This document shows, one piece after another, positions 1-21,943 of a stretch of 64,000 nucleotides of DNA (its first letter is position 1; each line of letters starts with the position of its first letter). The position numbers and the translations under genes are program-made. The stretch lies in the NCBI RefSeq assembly GCF_003018235.1, contig NZ_CP027437.1. One strand, given 5' to 3'. The DNA comes from Escherichia coli. GTDB lineage: Bacteria; Pseudomonadota; Gammaproteobacteria; Enterobacterales; Enterobacteriaceae. The notes under the pieces were generated by a model. The model searched no databases and had not been told where the DNA came from. It saw only the letters and a program-made list of their open reading frames with translations.

Positions 1-604
1 TGCCACCATCTCCAGTACCGCCAACACGCTGCAAATCATCACGGTGGCCGCCATACCCCAGGCGATGCAAAACATCCAGAACAATGACTTCAAAGCGCGA
101 AGGAGAAACCTGCAATAAGTTTTCCAGAACCTCATCAGCCACCGCATCACGAAGCTCTTTTAGCGCCTGATCTAACCGATCGTCCGGGCTGCTCTTTGCA
201 AGTTCTTCATGATCGGGAGAGTCGGCTTTCGGATCTAAATCGACGGCATCCGGCCGTGACTTAAGTTTGACATTCACAAAATCGAAGGCCAGATGGTTCG
301 TCTCCTGCTCCGTCATTGGCTGGGGATGAGACGCAACCCAGTCAAAACCCGCAGGAGTCAGGCACCATTTGCCACGCGACAAACTTTGCGACAACCCGGC
401 ACGTTTTAAACGGTCATGCGCCCAGCCTGCACGATTTTTATAAACAAGTTGTCCGCTGGTAATGACTTTCGCTCGCTGGCTGTCATCCAGTCCTAATGCA
501 TCCGCGGCAGCCTCATGAACATCACGCGCGGCTGCACCTTCCGGTTTTGTCGCCAGATAACGCAGAACAGGTTCAATAAATTTGTCATAGGTTGGAACCG
601 TCAT
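1..604 (-). CDS. mrr: Mrr methyl-directed (type IV) restriction endonuclease, N-terminal ~201 codons only; the gene runs off the window start
   Basis: Reverse-complement translation from ATG at 604..602 reads MTVPTYDKFIEPVLRYLATKPEGAAARDV..., recognised as the Mrr N-terminus; divergent from hsdR as in the E. coli immigration control region. Confidence 0.85.
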   Translation of the reverse strand, partial: MTVPTYDKFIEPVLRYLATKPEGAAARDVHEAAADALGLDDSQRAKVITSGQLVYKNRAGWAHDRLKRAGLSQSLSRGKWCLTPAGFDWVASHPQPMTEQETNHLAFDFVNVKLKSRPDAVDLDPKADSPDHEELAKSSPDDRLDQALKELRDAVADEVLENLLQVSPSRFEVIVLDVLHRLGYGGHRDDLQRVGGTGDGG

Positions 605-4505: not shown

Positions 4506-6095
4506 ATGAACAATAACGATCTGGTCGCGAAGCTGTGGAAGCTGTGCGACAACCTGCGCGATGGCGGCGTTTCCTATCAAAACTACGTCAATGAACTCGC
4601 CTCGCTGCTGTTTTTGAAAATGTGTAAAGAGACCGGGCAGGAAGCGGAATACCTGCCGGAAGGTTACCGCTGGGATGACCTGAAATCCCGCATCGGCCAG
4701 GAGCAGTTGCAGTTCTACCGAAAAATGCTCGTGCATTTAGGCGAAGATGACAAAAAGCTGGTACAGGCAGTTTTTCATAATGTTAGTACCACCATCACCG
4801 AGCCGAAACAAATAACCGCACTGGTCAGCAATATGGATTCACTGGACTGGTACAACGGCGCGCACGGTAAGTCGCGCGATGACTTCGGCGATATGTACGA
4901 AGGGCTGCTGCAGAAGAACGCCAACGAAACCAAGTCTGGTGCAGGCCAGTACTTCACCCCGCGTCCGCTGATTAAAACCATTATTCATCTGCTGAAACCG
5001 CAGCCACGTGAAGTGGTACAGGACCCGGCAGCGGGTACGGCGGGCTTTTTGATTGAAGCCGACCGCTACGTTAAGTCGCAGACCAATGATCTGGACGACC
5101 TTGATGGCGACACGCAGGATTTCCAAATCCACCGCGCGTTTATCGGCCTCGAACTGGTGCCCGGCACCCGTCGTCTGGCGCTGATGAACTGCCTGCTGCA
5201 CGATATTGAAGGCAACCTCGACCACGGCGGCGCAATCCGTCTGGGCAACACTCTGGGTAGCGACGGTGAAAACCTGCCGAAGGCGCATATTGTCGCCACT
5301 AACCCGCCGTTTGGCAGCGCCGCAGGCACCAACATTACCCGCACCTTTGTTCACCCGACCAGCAACAAACAGTTGTGCTTTATGCAGCATATTATTGAAA
5401 CGCTGCATCCCGGCGGTCGTGCGGCGGTGGTTGTGCCGGATAACGTGCTGTTTGAAGGCGGCAAAGGCACCGACATTCGTCGTGACCTGATGGATAAGTG
5501 TCATCTGCACACCATTCTGCGTCTGCCGACCGGTATTTTTTACGCTCAGGGCGTGAAGACCAACGTGCTGTTCTTTACCAAAGGGACGGTGGCGAACCCG
5601 AATCAGGATAAGAACTGTACCGATGATGTGTGGGTGTATGACCTGCGTACCAATATGCCGAGTTTCGGCAAGCGCACGCCGTTTACCGACGAGCATTTGC
5701 AGCCGTTTGAGCGCGTGTATGGCGAAGACCCGCACGGTTTAAGCCCGCGTACTGAAGGAGAATGGAGTTTTAACGCCGAAGAGACGGAAGTTGCCGACAG
5801 CGAAGAGAACAAAAATACCGATCAGCATCTTGCTACCAGCCGCTGGCGCAAGTTCAGCCGTGAGTGGATCCGCACCGCGAAATCCGATTCGCTGGATATC
5901 TCCTGGCTGAAAGATAAAGACAGTATTGATGCCGACAACCTGCCGGAGCCGGATGTGTTAGCGGCAGAAGCGATGGGCGAACTGGTACAGGCGCTGTCTG
6001 AACTGGATGCGCTGATGCGTGAACTGGGGGCGAGCGATGAGGCGGATGCGCAGCGCCAGTTGCTGGAAGAAGCATTTGGTGGGGTGAAGGAATGA
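4506..6095 (+). CDS. hsdM: Type I restriction-modification N6-adenine DNA methyltransferase M subunit (HsdM)
   Basis: 529-aa ORF with the NPPF catalytic motif (ATNPPFGSA) and an AdoMet-binding region; stop overlaps the hsdS start (ATGA). Confidence 0.95.
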   Translation: MNNNDLVAKLWKLCDNLRDGGVSYQNYVNELASLLFLKMCKETGQEAEYLPEGYRWDDLKSRIGQEQLQFYRKMLVHLGEDDKKLVQAVFHNVSTTITEPKQITALVSNMDSLDWYNGAHGKSRDDFGDMYEGLLQKNANETKSGAGQYFTPRPLIKTIIHLLKPQPREVVQDPAAGTAGFLIEADRYVKSQTNDLDDLDGDTQDFQIHRAFIGLELVPGTRRLALMNCLLHDIEGNLDHGGAIRLGNTLGSDGENLPKAHIVATNPPFGSAAGTNITRTFVHPTSNKQLCFMQHIIETLHPGGRAAVVVPDNVLFEGGKGTDIRRDLMDKCHLHTILRLPTGIFYAQGVKTNVLFFTKGTVANPNQDKNCTDDVWVYDLRTNMPSFGKRTPFTDEHLQPFERVYGEDPHGLSPRTEGEWSFNAEETEVADSEENKNTDQHLATSRWRKFSREWIRTAKSDSLDISWLKDKDSIDADNLPEPDVLAAEAMGELVQALSELDALMRELGASDEADAQRQLLEEAFGGVKE

Positions 6096-7459
6096 GTGCT
6101 GGGAAATTGCCGGAGGGGTGGGAACAGATTGAAATAGGCGACATTGCTGATGTCATCTCTGGTGGGACACCAAAATCGGGAGTCGCTGAAAATTTTGCAC
6201 CTTCGGGTGAGGGAGTCGCCTGGCTTACGCCTGCCGATTTGAGCGGTTATAAAGAGAAATATATCTCACATGGTGCCAGAGATTTAACTACACTAGGCTA
6301 TTCCTCTTGTTCAGCAAAACTAATGCCCAAAGGCACTATACTTTTTAGTAGCCGGGCACCGATTGGATATGTTGCTATTGCTGCAAATGAGATTGCGACT
6401 AACCAGGGTTTCAAAAGTTTTGCTTTTCCTTCAGACATTTTTCCTGATTATGCATATTACTTTCTCCGCAACATCAGACATATTGCAGAGGAAATGGGCA
6501 CAGGAACAACTTTTAAAGAAATTTCTGGTAGTTCTGCGAAAACATTACCATTTGTTCTTGTACCGTTTGCCGAACAAAAAATCATCGCTGAAAAACTCGA
6601 TACGCTGCTGGCACAGGTAGACAGCACCAAAGCACGTCTTGAGCAAATCCCACAAATCCTGAAACGTTTTCGTCAGGCGGTTCTGGGTGCAGCGGTGAGA
6701 GGAAAACTAACTGAAGACTGGAGAGATAATTCAAGCCTGTCTGGGTGGAGAGAAGGCAAACTTGGGGAGTTTATAAAAAAACCAAGTTACGGAACGTCAT
6801 CTAAGTCTAATAAAGAAGGACTCATTCCTGTATTAAGAATGGGCAATCTTCAGGGAGGAAAGTTGGACTGGACGGATCTAGTCTATACGTCAGATACCAT
6901 AGAAATTGAAAAGTATAAACTTGAGTACAATGATGTATTATTCAATCGTACAAATAGTCCTGAACTTGTCGGGAAAACAGCCATATATAAATCAGAGCAA
7001 CCAGCTATTTATGCAGGTTATTTGATTAGGGTTCAATGTTTACCTGATTTAAACCCTGACTATCTTAACTACCATTTAAATAGCATTTTGGGGAGACAAT
7101 ATTGCTATTCAGTTAAATCTGATGGGGTCAGTCAATCAAATATTAATGCACAGAAATTAATTGCATACCCAATAACTGTTCCCCCCCTTCCCGAACAAGC
7201 TGAAATCGTTCGCCGCGTCGAGCAACTCTTCGCCTACGCCGACACAATAGAAAAACAGGTCAACAACGCCTTAGCCCGCGTCAACAATCTGACGCAATCC
7301 ATCCTGGCAAAAGCGTTCCGTGGTGAACTCACCGCCCAGTGGCGGGCCGAAAACCCGGAATTAATCAGCGGTGAAAACAGCGCCGCCGCGTTGCTGGAGA
7401 AAATCAAAGCTGAACGCGCAGCCAGCGGGGGTAAAAAAGCCTCGCGTAAAAAGTCCTGA
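6092..7459 (+). CDS. hsdS: Type I restriction-modification specificity subunit (HsdS) with two variable target-recognition domains
   Basis: 455-aa ORF; conserved N-terminus MSAGKLPEGW, central block AEQKIIAEKLDTLLAQVDSTKAR and C-terminal block EQAEIVRRVEQLFAYADTIEKQVNNALARVNNLTQSILAKAFRGELTAQWRAEN are typical of type IA HsdS; the two intervening domains are AT-rich and divergent. Confidence 0.93.
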   Translation: MSAGKLPEGWEQIEIGDIADVISGGTPKSGVAENFAPSGEGVAWLTPADLSGYKEKYISHGARDLTTLGYSSCSAKLMPKGTILFSSRAPIGYVAIAANEIATNQGFKSFAFPSDIFPDYAYYFLRNIRHIAEEMGTGTTFKEISGSSAKTLPFVLVPFAEQKIIAEKLDTLLAQVDSTKARLEQIPQILKRFRQAVLGAAVRGKLTEDWRDNSSLSGWREGKLGEFIKKPSYGTSSKSNKEGLIPVLRMGNLQGGKLDWTDLVYTSDTIEIEKYKLEYNDVLFNRTNSPELVGKTAIYKSEQPAIYAGYLIRVQCLPDLNPDYLNYHLNSILGRQYCYSVKSDGVSQSNINAQKLIAYPITVPPLPEQAEIVRRVEQLFAYADTIEKQVNNALARVNNLTQSILAKAFRGELTAQWRAENPELISGENSAAALLEKIKAERAASGGKKASRKKS

Positions 7460-7594
7460 TCATTATTTTCTGGCGCACCTTTCTGGTGCGCTATTTATTA
7501 TTTTTACGCCAATCATAACTCACACAAATATATTTAAATCGTTCCAGAAACTTCCCATTTTATTCTATTTTTAGCTGGACTTTCCCTGTATTTA

Positions 7595-7610
7595 CTGATG
7601 ATATATCCAG
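7595..7610. promoter_or_regulatory. Candidate LexA box (CTG-N10-CAG, AT-rich centre) upstream of symE
   Basis: Sequence CTGATGATATATCCAG lies ~80 bp upstream of the symE start; symE is known to be SOS-regulated. Confidence 0.5.
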
Positions 7611-7614
7611 GTAT

Positions 7615-7697
7615 TTAGCGCGATGCGGATGTGCGCCAACACACCCGCACCGCTCATCACAATCACTATTTATGGAGAATAGTAATCATGACTGACA
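7615..7697 (-). ncRNA. symR: SymR antisense sRNA overlapping the symE 5' UTR and start codon (approximate boundaries)
   Basis: Position antisense to the symE translation start, matching the known symE/symR arrangement; boundaries not determinable from sequence alone. Confidence 0.4.
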
Positions 7698-8029
7698 CGC
7701 ATTCTATTGCACAACCGTTCGAAGCAGAAGTCTCCCCGGCAAATAACCGTCAATTAACCGTGAGTTATGCGAGTCGCTACCCGGATTACAGCCGTATTCC
7801 CGCCATCACCCTGAAAGGTCAGTGGCTGGAAGCCGCCGGTTTTGCCACTGGCACGGCGATAGATGTCAAAGTGATGGAAGGCTGTATTGTCCTCACCGCC
7901 CAACCCCCCGCCGCCGAAGAGAGCGAACTGATGCAGTCGCTTCGCCAGGTGTGCAAGCTGTCGGCGCGTAAACAAAGGCAGGTGCAGGAGTTTATTGGAG
8001 TGATTGCCGGTAAACAGAAAGTCGCGTAA
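7688..8029 (+). CDS. symE: SymE, SOS-induced toxin-like protein
   Basis: ORF 7631..8029; true start most likely ATG at 7688 ([15 protein letters not shown]...), giving 113 aa; sits between hsdS and mcrB. Confidence 0.85.
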
Positions 8030-8190
8030 CAGCGTTTACTCCCGGTTAACCACCGGGAGCTTTCCACTGACTCAATAGAAACTTTCCCCCTCAGTAAATA
8101 TTTACCTGCCTGATTGTGCAGTAAAAATCTATTGTTTCAGTACGTTGCGAAAGCGATAATAGAGGCTTAGCAATGAGGAAGGCACATCTT

Positions 8191-9570
8191 ATGGAATCAA
8201 TTCAAGCCTGGATTGAAAAATTTATTGAGCAAGCACAGCAACAAAGTTCACAATCCACTAAAGATTATCCAACGTCTTACCGTAACCTGCGAGTAAAAGT
8301 GAGTTTCGGTTATGGCAATTTTACATCTATTCCCTGGTTTGCATTTCTTGGAGAAGGTCAGGAAGTTTCTAACGGTATATATCCCGTTATTCTCTATTAT
8401 AAAGATTTTGATGAGTTGGTTTTGGCTTATGGTATAAGTGACACGAATAAACCACATGCCCAATGGCACTTTTCTTCTGACATACCTAAAACAATCGCAG
8501 AGTATTTCCAGGCAACTTCAGGTGTATATCCTAAAAAATACGGACAGTCCTATTACGCCTGTTCCCAAAAAGTCTCACAGGGTCTTGATTATACCCGGCT
8601 TGCCTCCATGCTGGACAACATAATCAACGACTATAAATTAATATTTAATTCTGGCAAGAGTGTTATTCCACCTATGTCAAAAACTGAATCATACTGTCTG
8701 GAAGATGCGTTAAATGATTTGTTTATCCCTGAAACCACAATAGAGACGATACTCAAACGATTAACCATCAAAAAAAATATTATCCTCCAGGGGCCGCCCG
8801 GCGTTGGAAAAACCTTTGTTGCACGCCGTCTGGCTTACTTGCTGACAGGAGAAAAGGCTCCGCAACGCGTCAATATGGTTCAGTTCCATCAATCTTATAG
8901 CTATGAGGATTTTATACAGGGCTATCGTCCGAATGGCGTCGGCTTCCGACGTAAAGACGGCATATTTTACAATTTTTGTCAGCAAGCTAAAGAGCAGCCA
9001 GAGAAAAAGTATATTTTTATTATAGATGAAATCAATCGTGCCAATCTCAGTAAAGTATTTGGCGAAGTGATGATGTTAATGGAACATGATAAACGAGGTG
9101 AAAACTGGTCTGTTCCCCTAACCTACTCCGAAAACGATGAAGAACGATTCTATGTCCCGGAGAATGTTTATATCATCGGTTTAATGAATACTGCCGATCG
9201 CTCTCTGGCCGTTGTTGACTATGCCCTACGCAGACGATTTTCTTTCATAGATATTGAGCCAGGTTTTGATACACCACAGTTCCGGAATTTTTTACTGAAT
9301 AAAAAAGCAGAACCTTCATTTGTTGAGTCTTTATGCCAAAAAATGAACGAGTTAAACCAGGAAATCAGCAAAGAGGCCACTATCCTTGGGAAAGGATTCC
9401 GCATTGGGCATAGTTACTTCTGCTGTGGGTTGGAAGATGGCACCTCTCCGGATACGCAATGGCTTAATGAAATTGTGATGACGGATATCGCCCCTTTACT
9501 CGAAGAATATTTCTTTGATGACCCCTATAAACAACAGAAATGGACCAACAAATTATTAGGGGACTCATAG
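8191..9570 (+). CDS. mcrB: McrB, GTP-dependent 5-methylcytosine-specific restriction enzyme subunit B (AAA+ GTPase)
   Basis: ORF 8173..9570; start MESIQAWIEKF at 8191 preceded by AGGAAGG; Walker A LQGPPGVGKTF; 459 aa. Confidence 0.93.
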   Translation: MESIQAWIEKFIEQAQQQSSQSTKDYPTSYRNLRVKVSFGYGNFTSIPWFAFLGEGQEVSNGIYPVILYYKDFDELVLAYGISDTNKPHAQWHFSSDIPKTIAEYFQATSGVYPKKYGQSYYACSQKVSQGLDYTRLASMLDNIINDYKLIFNSGKSVIPPMSKTESYCLEDALNDLFIPETTIETILKRLTIKKNIILQGPPGVGKTFVARRLAYLLTGEKAPQRVNMVQFHQSYSYEDFIQGYRPNGVGFRRKDGIFYNFCQQAKEQPEKKYIFIIDEINRANLSKVFGEVMMLMEHDKRGENWSVPLTYSENDEERFYVPENVYIIGLMNTADRSLAVVDYALRRRFSFIDIEPGFDTPQFRNFLLNKKAEPSFVESLCQKMNELNQEISKEATILGKGFRIGHSYFCCGLEDGTSPDTQWLNEIVMTDIAPLLEEYFFDDPYKQQKWTNKLLGDS

Positions 9571-10672: not shown

Positions 10673-13600
10673 TCAGGAGGCGATCACCTCCACCAGCACA
10701 TCCGTTGCCCAACTCTCTTCGCTGTTGGCGACATTCCCTTCCTTGCAGGCCTGAGCCATTTTGACTAACTGGAAAGAAACGTCATCGCGGAAATCAAAGT
10801 AATGCCATTGCGATGCAAAGTTGATGCGCCAGTAGCCCATCCCCTGATCGAAGCGGATCTTCAATACCTGACCATCATCAAAAGTCACCGTCAGTTTACG
10901 ATGGTGAGGGATATCGCGCGGCGAGTCGAACACCGTCAGTTCTACCGGCCTGCCCAGCGCAGCAGCAAACCACTGATCAGCGAAATCCTGAAAATCCGCT
11001 ATGCTCATCCAGTCATGGAAAGGCCGGTTACCGGGGCGATCTTTATCTTTAAATAGCGTATCCAGCGTCACTTCAGCGCCATCGGTCAGCTTTGTTTTTA
11101 GCGGTCTCAAAATTGATCCCAACAACGCCAGCGCAACCGGGTTTTGCAGATAGCGATCGGTATAGTGAACGCCGGTAATTCGCGTGTTATTCATCAGTGA
11201 CTGCGCTTCTTCATGGTCGTTAAACAGCACGTCCCAGAAGCGTTGCCCAAACTGCGACAGTGGTCCATTCAACTGTTTGTGGATCTGAATGTCTTTGACC
11301 CGCTCGACAGCGTTGGCGGCTTTAGCCGGCAGAATAAATTCGTTCAGCTCTACCGTTTTATAGCCGAGACTACGTACCACCAGTTCGTCATTCAGGTGCC
11401 ACTCCGGCCCCGGAATCGTTGCCTGCTGGCTACGAGAGGCCAGCGTCATCACGCGATCGGCAAAGGTGACCTGAGCAACGATCGGTAATTTCAAATCCTG
11501 TTCAACATGGCATAGCCGCACACCCAGCGCAGTAAATTGCGATAGTTCGTGCAACAGGTCCGGGTCATCCACTCCCGCAGGAATAACAAGATCGACCTCG
11601 ACGTTGTCTTTTAGCCGATAGTTCTGAACCGCCGCGCGGAACTGACGTGCGTATAAATCCCACTCATTGGGCGCGCCGGTCATCCACAGGGTGAGCTTTT
11701 CAGCGCCTTCGTTAATCGCCCGGCGAATCGTATCGCCAATGGCGCCAGGGCAGTAGCGGGCATCCGGCAGCGAGAATGTCTCTTCATCCGGTAAACCGAT
11801 GTAATACGTGAAGTCATCGCCAAGCCAGGCCAGCGCCGCTTTGCGATCCAGCAAATCGTGATCGTGGCGAGTCTGGGAATCAAGCAGGCATTCACTACAT
11901 GCAGTCTCACAATGGCGGCAGCCTAACTGTTTCACCATTCCCTGCAATATAGCTTCAATGTGTACCGGTGCGCTGGAGGCAAAACCTGCACCACCGCTGA
12001 TCACATCATAAAGCTGTACGGCTAATACCGATTGCCCATCCTCCAGTCTGACCGGACGTACAGAATAGCCGAGTTCTGCGGCGGAGATACCCAGAACGCC
12101 CGCCAGCGCCTGACGCAGAGCAACCGCCAGAGTCATGGCAACAATCCGCCCCTCCTCTGTGTTATCTGGCAGATACTCGCCGTTTTGCGGTTTGCGCAGA
12201 ATCATTTCAAAGACATCGGTGCGCGCCAGTGCGCCCAGGGTGACGTTCTTCATGAGTGCCGTCGAACCGGGGCAAATCAGACGATGATTCTGGCTGTCGC
12301 GATCCGCTTTACCCGGACGCGGTGGATAGTGAGCTTCCATGCTTTTCGGCGCATCATTTTCATTCAGCATCGACTCAGCACGGCCACAGCTCAGACACAA
12401 TGCATAACCGTGTCCACCTTCCCCCAAACTTTGCTGGAAAACATGCCCATCAGCCCCAGAAGCCATATAACCCATTAGCGGGTTAGGCAACGGTACGGGC
12501 TCTGCTTTAACAAAGACCCACGCGGGGACAACCGGGACGAATTTCATGGTTTCAATATTGTTCGTTACCGGAGCGTGTGCATCGGTGACAAACCCGGCAG
12601 GCTGCAGCACCTGACGGCGATTATCCATGATTATTTTTTCGCCGCAGGCGCTATTGGAGCAAAAGAGCATCCCGGAACTGCTCATCCCCTCTTCATAGCC
12701 AATGGTCCCGCATTTGTGACAGCGCCAGGCGCAATCCAGACGCTGGGCTTCATTGGTATCAGCATTAATGTTGTGCCAGTGCAGTGAGACACCGGCAGAG
12801 CGGAAGACACGGCCATCAAGAATGATCTCTGCTCCCGGTGCATATTCACGAATGGCAACACCGAGGTTACGGGAAGGTAATCCTTTATAACGGGAGACGT
12901 TATCTTCACGGTCCTTTTTATCACGACTTTTTTGCGATTTTTCGCGGATATAATCTTCCATTGTGAAGTTATCAAACGTCACTACATCTGTCGGGAAACC
13001 GTATCCCGGCAAGAAGGTTCTGGCAGCTAGATCGCGCAGCAGATACTCGCCACAGTGCCGTTTCTTCTCCAGCTCTATGCGCTTACGATAAGGCGTTTGC
13101 GGCTGCGACTCACGCTCCTGTGTCACGAGATCGCGATAAACGGAGAGCCACCGCTGCTGCAGGAAGGTGATCGCGTTGATTGTTTTATCCCGCAGATATT
13201 CGGCTCTTGCACCATGCAACGCCGTACCTTTCACCAGCCGTTCCAGCGCCGTGTCGATATCAAGAACAGGGCGTTCCAGCCAGACTTTGAAGCGTTCGCA
13301 TTTTGACTGCCCGTCATCTTCACCGAAAAACCAGAGGCTATCGAGGCTGGTTTTCTCTTTATCGGTTTCGCCAATAACGTTACATAAAAAGTCGGACAGT
13401 AATAATGCATTGACGTGACGTTGCACCAGTCGGGCGGAGTTCATCGCGACCATGGGTGCCGGGATCATGGTTTCAAATGGCCAGAGCGGGTTGGCAAAAA
13501 CCTGCTGGTCGTGTGGGTTACCTTTACATAGGGTGTAAGAGATCGCACGTGATTCTTTACTACGCCCGGCTCGCCCGGCGCGCTGTAAATAGTTGGCCGG

Positions 13601-16600
13601 ATGTGGCGGTACGTTGTTCATTACCACCGCAGTAATGCCCCCGATATCAACCCCCATTTCCATGGTGGTGGAACAGTTGAGAACATTTAGTTGCCCATTC
13701 TTGAACATCTTTTCATAGCTTTGCAGACGTTCTGACGACTGCTGGGCAGAGTGCTCGGCAGTGCGATAGTAGAAACCGCCTTCCACGACACGATCGTTGA
13801 TGTCTGTCCAGACGTTTTCCGACCGCAATTGTGCGATCAGCGGATCATTGCTGACCCAGTCGCGTGCTTTTGCCAGACCCTCTGCGTAGTCTTCCTGTGA
13901 ACGATCCAGCTTCCAGATTTCCGGCATGGTGACTTTCTGCGCGACAAAAGTGTCATATTGCGCCTGGGTAAGATGCTCGAACGAAATATGGGTAGGCAGA
14001 TAAGGGGTTAAGCCTTTAAAAGCCGTATCCAGGATTTTATTGGTTACCGGGCAAATCCAGGCATCCGTGATTAATGAAAAAGTCATATGCTCTTTCGGTA
14101 AATAAAAACGGTTGCCATCGGGTTTCAGTACTGCAAGCGGTCCGGTAAGTTGGGCCCATGCTTCTTTCAGCCATGTATTGATAATATCAATAGTCGCCGT
14201 ATTGACGGTTTTGAATCCAGCCCCCAGCATCAGTAACTTCGCTAAACGATGGGATACGTTGCCATTACGAATTTGAGGCCAGCGTCTGTTCTGATTATCT
14301 TCAGGATCTTTTGATTCCGGGTTACGGACGAATTTTGATGAAAAACGGCTACCGATCCAGTTTTTCAGCTCATCATCCAGCTGTGTGAAGTTGCTCTCAC
14401 GAACGTAATGATCCAGCGTAACTTTGAGAAAATCGCGCCAGTCATCCAGCGTTAATCCTTTTTCCTGCCAGTGCAGAGGGATCTTATGTATTTTCTCCAG
14501 CCCCAGGTAACCAACCTGAACCAGCCCTTGTGTTTCCAGGCTGTTAGTCCGTTTAGGGCGACGCATGAATTCCCGGAATAACAACATTTCCGAAAGCTTT
14601 AGAGGCCCGCCGTTTTCATTAAACACTTCAGGCTTAAGATAATGGTTATATTGCAGAACCGGGCCACGGATATCGGCTCTCTCTTTAAGCTCGTTAACCA
14701 TTTCTGTCCAGGTTCGGGATACCAGAGTAATTGCAGCTTTTCCACCGATTGCAGACTGGTAAGCCTGTTCAAGCTGCTCGGCCTGCGCTTCTGATAATTT
14801 CGCTTGATCCGGCAATCCCCAGCTTCGATATTCTTCTGCCTGCTCACGGGCTTGCTTTACCCTGGTCGCTAATTTTTCCAGATCGGCATTAGCGTTCGGC
14901 GCCGTGGGCGTTTGCGTTCGTTGATGCCAGCTCAGAATTTCGACTACGCTTCCGCGTAAGCGACTACGTTCTGCTTCTTGCTGCATACGCACCGCCATCC
15001 GGGCTGTCCCTTGTCGACTATCCGTAAAGGTAATGAGTCGACGTCCTCGCCCTGGCAACGAATCTGGTCCGACGCCCTCTTTGCCTTCATCACTGGCAAA
15101 GTCCTGACAATACTCAAGAACGGTGGGAACGATATTAGTAACGTAAAATGGCCCACCTAATAGTGCACGCCGGAAGGGCTGTTTCCCGCTCATGCCTCTG
15201 AAGCCACAGCCGCTGGCGCTACAAACCTGTTCAATATCATTAATAATCAGCGGAATGCTGTCATTATTAATAACGCCAATACGGCGCGTCTGACGGTCGA
15301 GGCGTTGTAGGGTATAGCCTGTCTCGCTGGTCTCTCCTGCGGCAATAATCAACGGAGGCTGGAAACCGTTCTCTTTTTCGACTTTTTCCTCTGTAGTGTC
15401 ATGTTCAACAGGTACTTCATCCTGCAAGGAGAACTCATCGCCACCTTTATTTTCCCATTGGACAAGTTTGCCCTTTTTGTCCTGCGCCAGAAGATGAGGC
15501 TCATTACAATCATTACAGAACGCCACTTCGTAGACAGGGCTTCCACAGTCGCAATTTTGTCGCTGGTTCACATACACATAGCCAAAGGGCCAGCCTTTTT
15601 CGAGCGGTGTACCGTGCTTTAATCTGCAATCTTTATCAACACAAGCCCATATTCCCTGGGTATTACGCTGGAAGATATGCGCCCTGACTTTAAGAAATGC
15701 GGGATCCTTTGCATTAGGTTGAGTCCCTGAACAGACATCGATCCAACGCAGTACTTCCTGCTGGCTGTAATGCTGTTTTGTCAGCGCATTTAACCGCTGC
15801 GTCATCTCATCCAGTTTCATTGGATTAGGTTGGCTAACCAACATTTCACGTATGTAACGCGCTTCGGGGGAGTGCGTAAGCGCATAAAAGCGCTCAGGAC
15901 TTATCCCTTTAATTTTATTATCATTTTTATCTTTTAGATCCAGATCAGGTATTTGCTCTATTTCGTCTAACGGAACAGAAACGTTTTTGGATGGTTCCAG
16001 TTCAGGAATCACCCGACTTCCGTCCAGAACATCGATGCGCTCCTGCGGGATACCGGATAATTCAGAGAGAAATTTTTTCAGCTGCTTTTCAGCGTCGCTG
16101 CCGGCAATGGTCGCAGAGGTCGCTACAAAGCGCACGTCATCTGGTGTCACGCCAAACGCTGTCATCACACGACGCAGCTGGAGCGCCAGTTCAGCGGCCT
16201 GCGACCCGACATAGGTATGCGCTTCATCCAGTACAATCCAGCGTAGTGATTTTTGTGCTTTAGATTGCTGGATAATCGGGGCGTCGACCTGGCGAACCAT
16301 CATATATTCCAGCATCGTGCCGTTGGTCACCAGAATCGGCGCAGGTTCTTCACGCATTTTTTCGCGCGAGAGCACCTCATTCGGCCTTTTTGCCTGTTCA
16401 CTTTTTACCGAAGCGTGTAGGTTTTCGGTGTTGCCGTTGTAAAGGCAGTAGCGAATCCCAGTACCAAAACCACGCGTCCAGGCATCCAGACGCTCGCGCT
16501 GTGAATTAATCAAGGCGTTCAATGGATAGAGAAAAAGGGCTCGGACACCAACCAACGGATTGTTGCCATTTTCATGCAGTTCCCGGTAAAGATCTTCCAG

Positions 16601-17017
16601 CACCGGAACCATAAAACATTCCGTTTTACCTGAACCCGTACCACTGGTTACCACCACTGAATGTTTCTTTTCCAGCAAAGCTTTCCAACTGGCTAACTGG
16701 TGTGTAAAAGGCTTCCAGTCAGCACCAAATCGGTACCGGCCATTACTCTGATTATCCAGTGAATCAACCACTGCTTTGCTCAACAATGCGTTGCCTTCCG
16801 TCAGGCTGCGCATCGTGTGATTTGACTCCTTCCATCCAAACATTTGCTGGAATACCGGAGAAGCAAGGAATGAGCCCGGTTTCCCACAATCAGCCCCCAT
16901 TTGTTGCGCGAGATGTTCACGCAGCTGCGGGTTGGTAACGCCCATGATACTGAGCGTTGCTTCAGTTGAACGAGACAACGATTGTTCAATAAGTGACGAA
17001 AAATAGCGTGTAGTCAT
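10673..17017 (-). CDS. Very large DEAD/DEAH-box helicase with C-terminal cysteine-cluster (DUF1998/MrfA-like Zn-ribbon) region; DruE-like (Druantia) defence protein
   Basis: Intact 2114-aa ORF; Walker [17 protein letters not shown] box [11 protein letters not shown] motif, helicase-C motif QRAGRAGR, cysteine clusters (CHKCG...CSNSACG; CLSCG; [11 protein letters not shown]); good RBS AAGGAATAAGG before the ATG; 87 bp downstream of the partner gene. Confidence 0.75.
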
Positions 17018-17104: not shown

Positions 17105-18823
17105 TTACCTCAGGAAAAATACGGCACCGGGTTTACGGTCAAATACAGCTTCAAAAGAAGTATTTCCGCTTGCCACAGCTGCAGCGAAGACGGGTAACCA
17201 GGCCACGGAATAGCGGTGATTTGCGTCAGGATTAATACCAATCACTGGATTTTTTTGTGACATCATCCATTTATACAGACGCTTGCAGCCATATTCAGGC
17301 CAGCGAGCTTCACTGTGCTCACGTAAAAGCTCCTGATACCACCCGTGGACACAAGATTCAGGAATAGACGGAGGGAGATATCCGTTACTTAACCATTTCT
17401 CAATTTCATCGGCATATGTCGGGAACACGAGCCCCAGCCGTTGAAACATATTAGTAACCAGTAATTTCTGGGTTTCCTCCGGTGCACCTTTTTGGCTCAG
17501 GAACAATTTGAAACGCTCAGATGCAGCTTTGATCTCAAAGATGGGGAAAAACTCCCATAGAATAGGGAACTCATTCTCAATACGACTCAGGTACTCTGCT
17601 GACATTTCAAATTTGAAGAGCGACATCGCCAATGCCTGCGGATGCTGCACTAGTGCACGCCATACTTCAAAGGTTGCCAGCGGTAAATAACCAAATTGAT
17701 CGTACAGGCTACGCATAAATTGCCAGCCGGAATGGGCAGGATCGTTAGCCATCTGTCCGAGAACCAGTGTGATGGTATTAACTTCTGCCTGTGGATTAAA
17801 AAGCTGGGTCGCTTTCTGCAATGAGCGGATGTTGCTTTCTTCTACCGGTAACGAAGATTCGCCACGAATGAAGCAGGGGCGAAAAGCCATCTCCTCACCC
17901 GGTTTAGGAACAACCAACCATGGCCCATTTTTGTTAACGATTGAGCTCAACTCATATTCACCGACAGGCACTCCCTCGCTCATTCTTGATGCTAAGGGGA
18001 TGGATTTCCTCTCGGGTTCACTTAACAGCATGATAACGGGGGAAGGAATCTGCCCAGCACGATGGTTCACTGACTGGCTGAGTAATAGTTCTTTTTCATA
18101 ATCATAGCGCAGGCTGTATTTATAGCGACGAATTTGCCAGGCCATGACCACACCTGCCCCCGTAATACGCATCTCAACAACCTGATCAATACCTGCCTCA
18201 AGTGAAATCAGGTTCTCAATATGTTCGCGCAGACTATAGAGATTCAATTCAACAGGACGATCGCTCAACGCCGTATAACACCATTCATGCCATGCCTGTA
18301 ATCCACTAACGGAGCGCAAATACAACTGCAATGTATATTTTGTCGGCTCACCATTTCTGGAGAACAGAAACGCTCTGGAACCCAGCAGATCATGCAGCGT
18401 AATGTTTTTATCCAGAGGACGTCCGTTTACATCAAGAGCGAGACAGCCTTTAGCGGGAAAAGGTAACTCAATGTCGATGGGGTCAGCCGCCAAATTAGGC
18501 AGAACTTGTAATGTAATAAATGCCGGAGGTACCCCTTCCGCTTTAAGTTGTATCTCTGTTCGCCCCTCAGTACGCTTACGTGTAGCCTCCAATGTTTTAT
18601 CTTTAAGTTTTGCTACACAAGGATGCTGTGTGGTGATTAAGATAGTGCCTTCATTTGCGTGCATTCCACCTTTTATCTCAATACTGAAATCAGCAGGCAA
18701 GATACCGATTTTGCGACGCAAGAGCGTTTCATTGTTACTATTACGGATAGAAAGATATTGAGCCCCCAGCATCTCTTGTATATGACATTGCTCAATTGAA
18801 ATTCCGCTCAGGTAACGCGTTAC
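17105..18823 (-). pseudogene. C-terminal fragment of the DruH-like partner gene, separated from its 5' part by IS100
   Basis: The 582-aa ORF 17105..18853 begins with a GTG inside the IS inverted repeat; native sequence starts at 18823; frame is continuous with fragment 20778..21943 once the IS and one GTTAC copy are removed. Confidence 0.75.
18819..18823. repeat. Target-site duplication (GTTAC), left copy
   Basis: Identical 5-bp GTTAC immediately flanks both ends of the 1954-bp element. Confidence 0.75.
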
Positions 18824-20777
<1,954 letters not shown>

Positions 20778-20782
20778 GTTAC
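20778..20782. repeat. Target-site duplication (GTTAC), right copy
   Basis: See left copy. Confidence 0.75.
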
Positions 20783-21943
20783 ATCAATGCTTTGAATATC
20801 CGGTAGTGTAGAAATGACTTTTGGTACACCAATAAATGTTTCATCTGGATGACAAACCCAGCTTGCACGCTTTCCATTTAGAGCAAACCTTCCGATGCTG
20901 ATTTGTTCTCTTCCGGTGCGAATCCGATAAGTTTCATTTGCTGTAACTGTAACGTCCTGACATCCCTTCACAGGTAGTGCTTTTAGTCCTAATACGTTTA
21001 CTGCGCTCGATTGGCCATCAAAACCAGCAACATTGCTATTATCCCGAGGGAGTACAATCAGAACATCGCTGCTTCGCACACTGCAAGAAGCCTGTCCCTG
21101 TAACAGCCATTGATCTGCATCAACGATGAAGGTTAACGGCACCTCACCAATGGCAATTTCACTGTCATCAAGTTTAATGCTCCCAACAATCATCCCTCCA
21201 GCACGAGCCACTAATGACAAACCTGCCGATGGATTTTGCCTGACAAATCTCACTTCGCTTTTACGTAATCGAACTGTTGCCTGTCTGTTTTCCAGGGAAG
21301 CATAGGCTGGCCCAAGGCCAGAGACTTCCTCACCATCTTCACAAATGGCAAGTTCAAAGCGCGTAGTTGACGGCTCGCTTGTTACAGGAAAGGAAACTTC
21401 GTCCGGAAGAGATACTATCACCCTAAGCTCATCTGGATGCTTTTCTGACCAATAGAATTGGCAACGCGTACTCTTATTTTTTTGTAGTCGAGGCTTAGCC
21501 TCTACAGAGGCTGCGCATAGCAGTCCATTCAAAAAATGCGTTCCTGTTTCATCATCTAACGGTATTGGAAACTCGCTTCGCCAGGTAGGGTGAACCTTCT
21601 CAAGCTGTTGTACTGGTTCTTTGTGATTTATTAGGTTGTGAGTAAGTACTAAGGAATTGAGGTTATCAGCCATATGACTGATAAGTTCTACAGAGGTATC
21701 TTCGCTAAAAACAGTTGGCAGCGCTGATTTTTCTATGACAGCTCTTGCCAGCGAAAGGGCAGAAAAACCTGACTGCTTTGCTTGCTCATATTGTCCAAGG
21801 ATCCTGGAGAAAACAGCCAGAAAGCGACTGTCTGATTCTTTGAGTAGCCGGAAAGGTAAACCACCTTCACTGAATAATGTTCCGAGAAAATTGCGTCGTT
21901 CAGATTCATAAAATCGAATTGGGCGCAGCCAGTAATCTTCCAT
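20778..21943 (-). pseudogene. N-terminal fragment of the DruH-like partner gene, interrupted by IS100
   Basis: The 393-aa ORF 20762..21943 ends in a stop supplied by the IS end; the reconstructed junction reads ...TLPDIQSIDV|TRYLSGISIEQ... in frame. Confidence 0.75.

Follow-up and report, generated by a model that had tools for sequence, protein, structure and literature searches.

The type I and type IV restriction genes of the Escherichia coli chromosomal stretch analysed here (64,000 nucleotides, referred to as the window) are separated by 731 bp between the hsdS stop (7459) and the mcrB start (8191), which raises the question of what this interval holds, how it would be controlled and what its product does. 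An earlier note on the same DNA had proposed an SOS-inducible, toxin-like RNase module of SymE and an antisense SymR RNA, embedded in the restriction cluster. The interval holds symE/symR, and the locus is almost certainly the type I toxin-antitoxin locus symE/symR that E. coli carries on its chromosome in the immigration control region. It is already known, having been characterised by Kawano et al. 2007 and in subsequent work, and the window carries an allelic variant of this published locus. PGAP-style records give symE but as a rule lack symR and the LexA box; the positions reported here fill this gap in the annotation of the window, and the significance beyond correct annotation is small. 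The landmarks that frame the locus are the following.

2..604, minus strand: N-terminus of mrr, at the left edge of the window
6092..7459, plus strand: hsdS, the left flank of symE
7471..7493, plus strand: intrinsic-terminator-like hairpin of hsdS followed by a T-run (terminator scan: 9-bp stem, 6 GC pairs, tail TTTATTATTT)
8191..9570, plus strand: mcrB from its canonical start; the ORF is open from 8173

The genes follow the order mrr, hsdR, hsdM, hsdS, symE/symR, mcrB, mcrC, which is that of the immigration control region of K-12, and the hsdRMS-symE-mcrBC segment of K-12-type genomes is identical to that of the window in order and orientation. The island is syntenic with K-12-type records and with that of strain MEI003, in all of which yjiA flanks mrr. 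The immigration control region has been described as a variable block adjoining yjiA that carries mrr, hsdRMS, a type IV system (either mcrBC or gmrSD, which can stand in for it) and symE/symR, and a 2025 review names symE symR as one of the toxin-antitoxin systems found with the type I and type IV restriction genes of the island (PMC12707154). A variable block with mrr, type I hsdRMS, type IV mcrBC and symE/symR was likewise found in the window, so that the proposed placement within the restriction cluster stands, as the textbook K-12 arrangement and hence not as a new one. The symE region was matched in 2,872 of 5,426 complete E. coli genomes, about 47% being without the locus. Within the interval itself the order is a terminator-like hairpin, an AT-rich stretch, a 20-mer resembling a LexA operator, a GC-rich palindromic segment, GGAG, the symE ATG and a GC-rich hairpin. 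The first of these, at 7471..7493, is terminator-like and may close the hsd operon, setting symE apart from the hsdRMS transcript.

The surroundings of the locus are mosaic. The hsdS gene encodes 455 amino acids, a length equal to that of the strain AR_0372 allele, as against 464 for the EcoKI HsdS of K-12; it represents a different specificity allele and the type I enzyme here should therefore have another target sequence. Adjoining mcrC is a Druantia type III system (10673..17017, minus strand; 17105..18853, minus strand; 18910..20711, plus strand; 20762..21943, minus strand). Its DruE3 is an intact helicase of 2114 amino acids (PADLOC, 2697 bits), and its DruH3 (yjiT) is cut in two by an IS21-family element consisting of an istA-like transposase (18910..19932) and istB (19929..20711). 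The Druantia helicase is a pseudogene in K-12-type genomes; an IS30 interrupts it in strain MEI003, where yjiT is intact. In Escherichia whittamii (L035, 48..12990) hsdRMS-symE is followed directly by DruE (97% identical) without mcrBC, which suggests that mcrBC may have been inserted between symE and the Druantia genes. Further along the window, 36047..41287 on the plus strand encodes an inverse autotransporter or invasin-like adhesin of 1746 amino acids, with an IAT_beta domain and at least 8 Big_1 / Invasin_D3 repeats.

The gene for the toxin and its immediate signals were placed as follows.

7688..8029, plus strand: symE coding sequence, 113 amino acids, from the ATG at 7688 to the TAA ending at 8029
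7674..7677, plus strand: symE Shine-Dalgarno sequence GGAG, 10 nt upstream of the ATG and within the stretch complementary to SymR
8039..8059, plus strand: GC-rich hairpin past the symE stop, a weak terminator candidate (CUCCCGG-loop-CCGGGAG, then CUUUCC)

The 113-amino-acid SymE gene that had been read between hsdS and mcrB was borne out, with both flanking genes on the plus strand. The protein matched Pfam PF08845 (SymE_toxin) with 76.6 bits against a cutoff of 29, over profile positions 1-54 of 54, and the NCBIfam equivalog NF010128 with 229.4 bits against a cutoff of 132, over residues 1-112 of 113. It is identical to K-12-type SymE at 107 of 113 positions (95%). The true start is taken to be the ATG at 7688, because NF010128 aligns with residues 1-112 of the 113, all genera compared keep ATGACT unchanged and a GGAG is found 10 nt upstream; the GGAATAG / GAGAATAG block at the Shine-Dalgarno sequence is also conserved across genera. 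A longer ORF of 132 amino acids with a GTG start (7631..8029), present in the mechanical ORF list, was rejected as a gene, its additional residues being an unconserved translation of the symR hairpin region.

The hairpin beyond the stop codon folds with -16.1 kcal/mol (z -2.67). No call was made there by the terminator scan because the T-run is short. This hairpin is shared with K-12 and is absent in alleles with GmrSD downstream. The homology of the window to its closest symE alleles (99.6% identity, e.g. strain AR_0372) ends at 8029..8035, within bases of the symE stop (L002, 4566..4620), and strains of the AR_0372 type possess a GmrSD gene downstream of symE in place of mcrBC. The full interval 7460..8172 was not found at 99% identity or better among the complete E. 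coli genomes in the collection, the best full-length match being 96.6%. The 3' end of symE thus looks like a recombination junction at which the window joins a GmrSD-type symE allele to mcrBC.

The antisense RNA was located with its probable promoter elements at these positions.

7617..7693, minus strand: symR, cis-antisense RNA of 77 nt (type I antitoxin), Rfam RF01809
7701..7706, minus strand: -10 hexamer TAGAAT of the symR promoter, inside symE codons 5-7 and 7 nt from the SymR 5' end (7693)
7724..7729, minus strand: possible, weak -35 element TTCTGC, assigned from its 17-nt spacing, with a 2/6 match

The minus-strand segment 7615..7697 had been suggested as the place of SymR over the symE start. 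Rfam RF01809 refines this to 7617..7693 with a full-length match (all 77 model positions; 95.8 bits, gathering level 61; E 3.9e-19), the sole match at gathering level in the 64-kb window. SymR is complementary to the symE 5' UTR, the Shine-Dalgarno sequence, the start codon (ATG 7688..7690) and the first base of codon 2, and the complementarity is perfect over essentially the whole leader, the Shine-Dalgarno sequence and the start codon. Its predicted fold, at -41.1 kcal/mol (z -5.96 relative to shuffled sequences), consists of two long hairpins. Across 35 sequences 97.2% of the cells of this two-hairpin structure were paired, compared with 25-53% when the partners were slid, and compensatory changes, with both partners altered, occurred in 10 pairs, of which 9 belong to the 3' hairpin (hairpin 2, 15 pairs). 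The 5' hairpin is nearly invariant in the same 35 sequences, as would be expected because its complement comprises the symE Shine-Dalgarno sequence and start region.

The comparison with K-12 symR that had been proposed as a check yielded 8 differing bases of 77 and an identical promoter region. All 8 differences preserve or create pairs, the K-12 A/C mismatch 44/71 becoming a G-U pair here. The symR promoter is reported to be embedded in the symE ORF, where silent mutations of the -10 element abolish SymR (Kawano 2007, PMC1891008), and the position of TAGAAT at 7701..7706 fits this placing. TAGAAT or TACAAT was kept at this position in 33 of 33 other loci. The ACTTCTG sequence around the putative -35 element is also conserved, which may be owing to the coding sequence.

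Control by LexA was considered next to these elements, for which the relevant positions are as follows.

7593..7612, unstranded: predicted LexA operator (SOS box) TACTGATGATATATCCAGGT, overlapping the probable symE -10 region and start site
7576..7581, plus strand: probable -35 element TGGACT of the symE promoter, assigned from the conservation of GCTGGACTTT across genera, with a 4/6 match to TTGACA

An operator was defined as a 20-bp sequence of the form TACTG(TA)5CAGTA, with CTG-N10-CAG and an HI below about 14-15. Candidates were scored with a symmetrised matrix of 27 E. coli LexA operators from which the symE box was excluded. The operator sequences entered were cross-checked against published HI values. 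The HI values obtained were mostly within about 1.5 units of those published (umuDC 2.4/2.1, recA 4.9/5.0, dinG 8.8/8.6, polB 11.6/13; PMC11228462), the exception being tisB, for which the box as entered scores far worse than its published HI.

The CTG-N10-CAG motif that had been put forward upstream of symE as a candidate LexA box proved to lie within TACTGATGATATATCCAGGT, with CTG at 7595-7597 and CAG at 7608-7610. The weight-matrix scoring proposed as its test gave 16.2 bits and an HI of 9.1 (9.12), ranking it first of all positions in the 64-kb window, ahead of a runner-up of 12.6 bits; only 0.02 sites as good would be expected by chance per 64 kb of Markov-1 simulated sequence. The 20-mer has the form of a LexA regulon operator, and its HI lies below the threshold and within the range of accepted operators (dinG, dinB, ybfE, polB). 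The K-12 symE box reaches 17.2 bits and an HI of 8.35 on the same matrix; its published HI is 7.9, in a listing with a threshold below 14, and its LexA dependence is 2.5-fold (PMC11228462).

The bare motif is common in the window, occurring 29 times compared with 12.2 ± 3.4 in Markov-1 simulations, and is therefore uninformative as an indicator of LexA boxes. The excess is probably a codon-usage effect of the abundant CTG and CAG triplets. One such occurrence upstream of mcrB, at 8106, was rejected as a LexA site (3.2 bits, HI 18.3). The start coordinate of the earlier note, 7586, falls on a different CTG (CTGTAT), and was not upheld: a second box beginning there was rejected as having no CAG partner and no positive matrix score and as being absent from K-12. 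Apart from 7593..7612, no 20-mer between 7560 and 7640 scored above 0 bits on the LexA matrix.

When 7440..8200 was scanned for promoters under strict criteria, none of sigma-70 consensus type emerged for symE or symR, and the hexamers given above were assigned from cross-genus conservation and spacing. TGGACT lies 12 nt upstream of the LexA box and 15-18 nt from AT-rich hexamers inside it. Since the only plausible symE -10 hexamers sit within the box, bound LexA would occlude the symE promoter, which is a weak one.

The predicted operator differs from that of K-12 at a single base, an A to C change at box position 15, immediately before CAG. If this change had weakened the site, the 20-mer might be merely an AT-rich promoter segment, with symE in this strain under the control of SymR and Lon alone. 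The rise in HI from 8.35 in K-12 to 9.12 is in the direction that this would require, and the overlap of the box with the presumed -10 region means that promoter function could explain some of its conservation. The base itself speaks otherwise. C comes second in frequency at this position among known boxes (16 of 54 half-site observations) and is the commoner variant among the Escherichia alleles compared, being present in 4 of the 5 aligned; it is for both reasons regarded as a normal variant and not a lesion. An HI of 9.1 is, moreover, below those of accepted operators such as ybfE and polB, and CTG and CAG remain constant across genera while the spacer varies (TGATGATATAT, GGTTAAATTT, GGGTATTTTT), a pattern of LexA sites and not of a -10 element. 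Loss of LexA control is accordingly considered highly improbable, and a functional LexA operator remains the preferred reading.

The wider distribution of this arrangement was assessed with a single degenerate-pattern scan using a 10-letter SymE protein motif. This yielded 35 loci from Citrobacter, Kosakonia, Pseudocitrobacter, Pantoea, Raoultella, Klebsiella, Phytobacter, Kluyvera, Leclercia, Enterobacter and Escherichia whittamii. Rfam placed symR over the symE start codon in 33 of the 35, always antisense and with a 5' end situated 5 nt beyond the A of the ATG; the two loci without an Rfam symR match were L005, where the sequence ends upstream, and L013, where nothing reached gathering level. 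Of the 33 loci bearing symR, 32 had a CTG-N10-CAG(G) box as their best upstream match to the LexA matrix, and the sequence of the remaining one is truncated. The distance from this box to the symR 3' end is 4-10 nt in 29 of these 33 loci and larger in three. Constancy of CTG and CAG around a spacer that varies by lineage is the signature to be expected of selection for LexA binding, not for a particular promoter sequence.

The three displaced boxes are situated 51 nt from symR in two Phytobacter loci (L020, L021) and 129 nt from it in L015, a second copy in Raoultella ornithinolytica, which implies insertions in the symE leader. Two symE/symR copies each were present in R. ornithinolytica, R. 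planticola and Kluyvera ascorbata. Two further contigs (L027, L028), labelled as 'Bacillota bacterium' MAGs, carry an Escherichia-like hsd-symE-symR arrangement in which SymE is 93-96% identical and HsdM 97% (L028); these most likely represent mis-binning or contamination rather than transfer to Firmicutes.

Taken together with the experiments performed in K-12, these elements allow a scheme of control to be proposed. LexA would silence symE transcription until DNA damage triggers its cleavage (Kawano 2007), and both LexA binding and damage induction of symE are K-12 results (PMC1891008; PMC11228462). Induction of K-12 symE by AZT was only 1.5-fold in one recent data set (PMC11228462), and from this figure SOS induction at the mRNA level would be modest. 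SymR would be transcribed leftwards from 7693 to 7617, from the -10 element TAGAAT inside symE, and would pair with the symE mRNA. The K-12 SymR is a stable RNA that exceeds symE mRNA about 10-fold in abundance (PMC1891008), and its removal raises the mRNA about 3-fold and the SymE protein more than 7-fold (PMC1891008; PMC4147584). Because the protein rises more than the mRNA, SymR appears to act mainly as a translational block; by analogy its pairing here would chiefly prevent translation of symE and modestly lower the mRNA level. Any SymE produced would be degraded by Lon, as in K-12, where the controls exerted by LexA, SymR and Lon are additive (PMC1891008; PMC4147584). For the present strain, we infer SOS inducibility and antisense transcription from conservation.

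It might be argued that symE/symR is a decaying passenger of the defence island, its expression having been lost in this strain. The island is mosaic and ridden with insertion sequences, DruH next door being split by an IS21-family element, and about 47% of complete E. coli genomes are without the locus. Against this, the symE ORF is uninterrupted and 95% identical to that of K-12, no difference from K-12 separates the symR promoter regions, every one of the symR substitutions keeps or improves pairing and the LexA box is retained. Such a reading is scarcely credible in view of these features.

The activity of SymE is a separate matter. It was originally proposed to be an endoribonuclease (Kawano 2007, PMC1891008), and the NCBIfam and RefSeq label for the protein is 'endoribonuclease SymE'. 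With locus and regulation unchanged, SymE could on this basis be an endoribonuclease toxin cleaving mRNA, alone or on the ribosome, and so clearing damaged RNA after SOS induction. The work of Thompson et al. 2022, in the account of it given in PMC11894785, points elsewhere: endoribonuclease activity was not found and RNA was not cleaved on overexpression, and SymE was observed to bind DNA non-specifically throughout the genome and to cause compaction or condensation of the nucleoid. The central domain of SymE has also been reported to be homologous to MazE's DNA-binding domain (PMC1891008, PMC11894785). A fold belonging to DNA-binding antitoxins (AbrB/MazE) speaks against a nuclease. Cleavage of mRNA by SymE is therefore judged unlikely. 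We know of no nuclease motif in an AbrB/MazE-type SymE domain. Most likely SymE binds DNA without specificity, compacting the nucleoid and halting growth as it accumulates, rather than being a true endoribonuclease. 'RNase' and 'endoribonuclease' are historical and annotation labels that are now disputed (PMC11894785) and should be treated as provisional; this applies equally to the RNase part of the module as first proposed.

The AbrB/MazE-type fold rests on the literature and not on the structure searches performed here. An AlphaFold2 model of the SymE monomer was of moderate confidence (pLDDT 67.8), the AbrB/MazE-type fold being that of an obligate dimer for which a monomer is a poor test. 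Foldseek searches of the PDB with this model placed AbrB N-domain and MazE chains near the top at non-significant E values (0.85-5.6). A sequence search of the PDB with SymE gave zero matches even at E 10, a Pfam search at E 10 gave no match to a MazE or AbrB family, and PADLOC holds no model for SymE.

The physical association of symE with restriction-modification systems was already noted in 2007 (PMC1891008). Among the loci of other genera, an HsdS is encoded by the direct upstream neighbour of symE, an ORF sharing its strand, in 12 of the 26 with enough upstream sequence (L004, L007, L010, L011, L015, L017, L027, L028, L031, L032, L035 and L038), and two HsdS families are represented. Elsewhere symE persists with the restriction-modification genes gone, the upstream neighbour being yjiA, the boundary gene of the island, in L029 and a 40-amino-acid HsdS remnant in L034. 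Why type I restriction operons should so often have an SOS-induced DNA-binding toxin at their 3' end is a question to which the window adds no new evidence. One answer, which we regard as very unlikely, would be that symE/symR is a functional accessory of the preceding type I restriction operon and not a free-riding addiction cassette. Were this so, SOS-induced SymE could coat the DNA and shield the chromosome from self-restriction once unmodified sites arise after damage, which would amount to restriction alleviation; another possibility would be that SymE provides a back-up growth arrest when restriction fails.

Of the named systems, the closest is K-12 symE (yjiW, b4347) and symR (ryjC, b4625), characterised by Kawano, Aravind & Storz (2007). 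The two loci share the hsdS-symE-mcrB order, orientation and the 113-amino-acid length of SymE, a symR of 77 nt at an equal offset from the start codon, a LexA box at an equal position and 45 identical base pairs upstream of the SymR 5' end, that is, the promoter. They differ by 6 amino-acid substitutions in SymE, 8 of 77 symR bases and 1 base of the LexA box, and no functional difference is implied by any comparison made here. The tisB/istR-1 and dinQ/agrB loci of E. coli likewise combine a LexA-repressed toxin gene with a constitutive small RNA that prevents translation of the toxin (PMC4147584). In these two loci a small, hydrophobic peptide of the membrane serves as the toxin, and the antitoxin RNA comes from a gene next to that of the toxin and targets a leader, whereas SymE is a soluble protein of 113 amino acids with a reported AbrB/MazE fold and its antitoxin SymR is a genuine cis-antisense RNA that spans the ribosome-binding site. 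The MazE and AbrB (SpoVT-AbrB swapped-hairpin) DNA-binding antitoxins are reported to share the fold of SymE, but the partner bearing it is the toxic one in the case of SymE and the antitoxin in the case of MazE.
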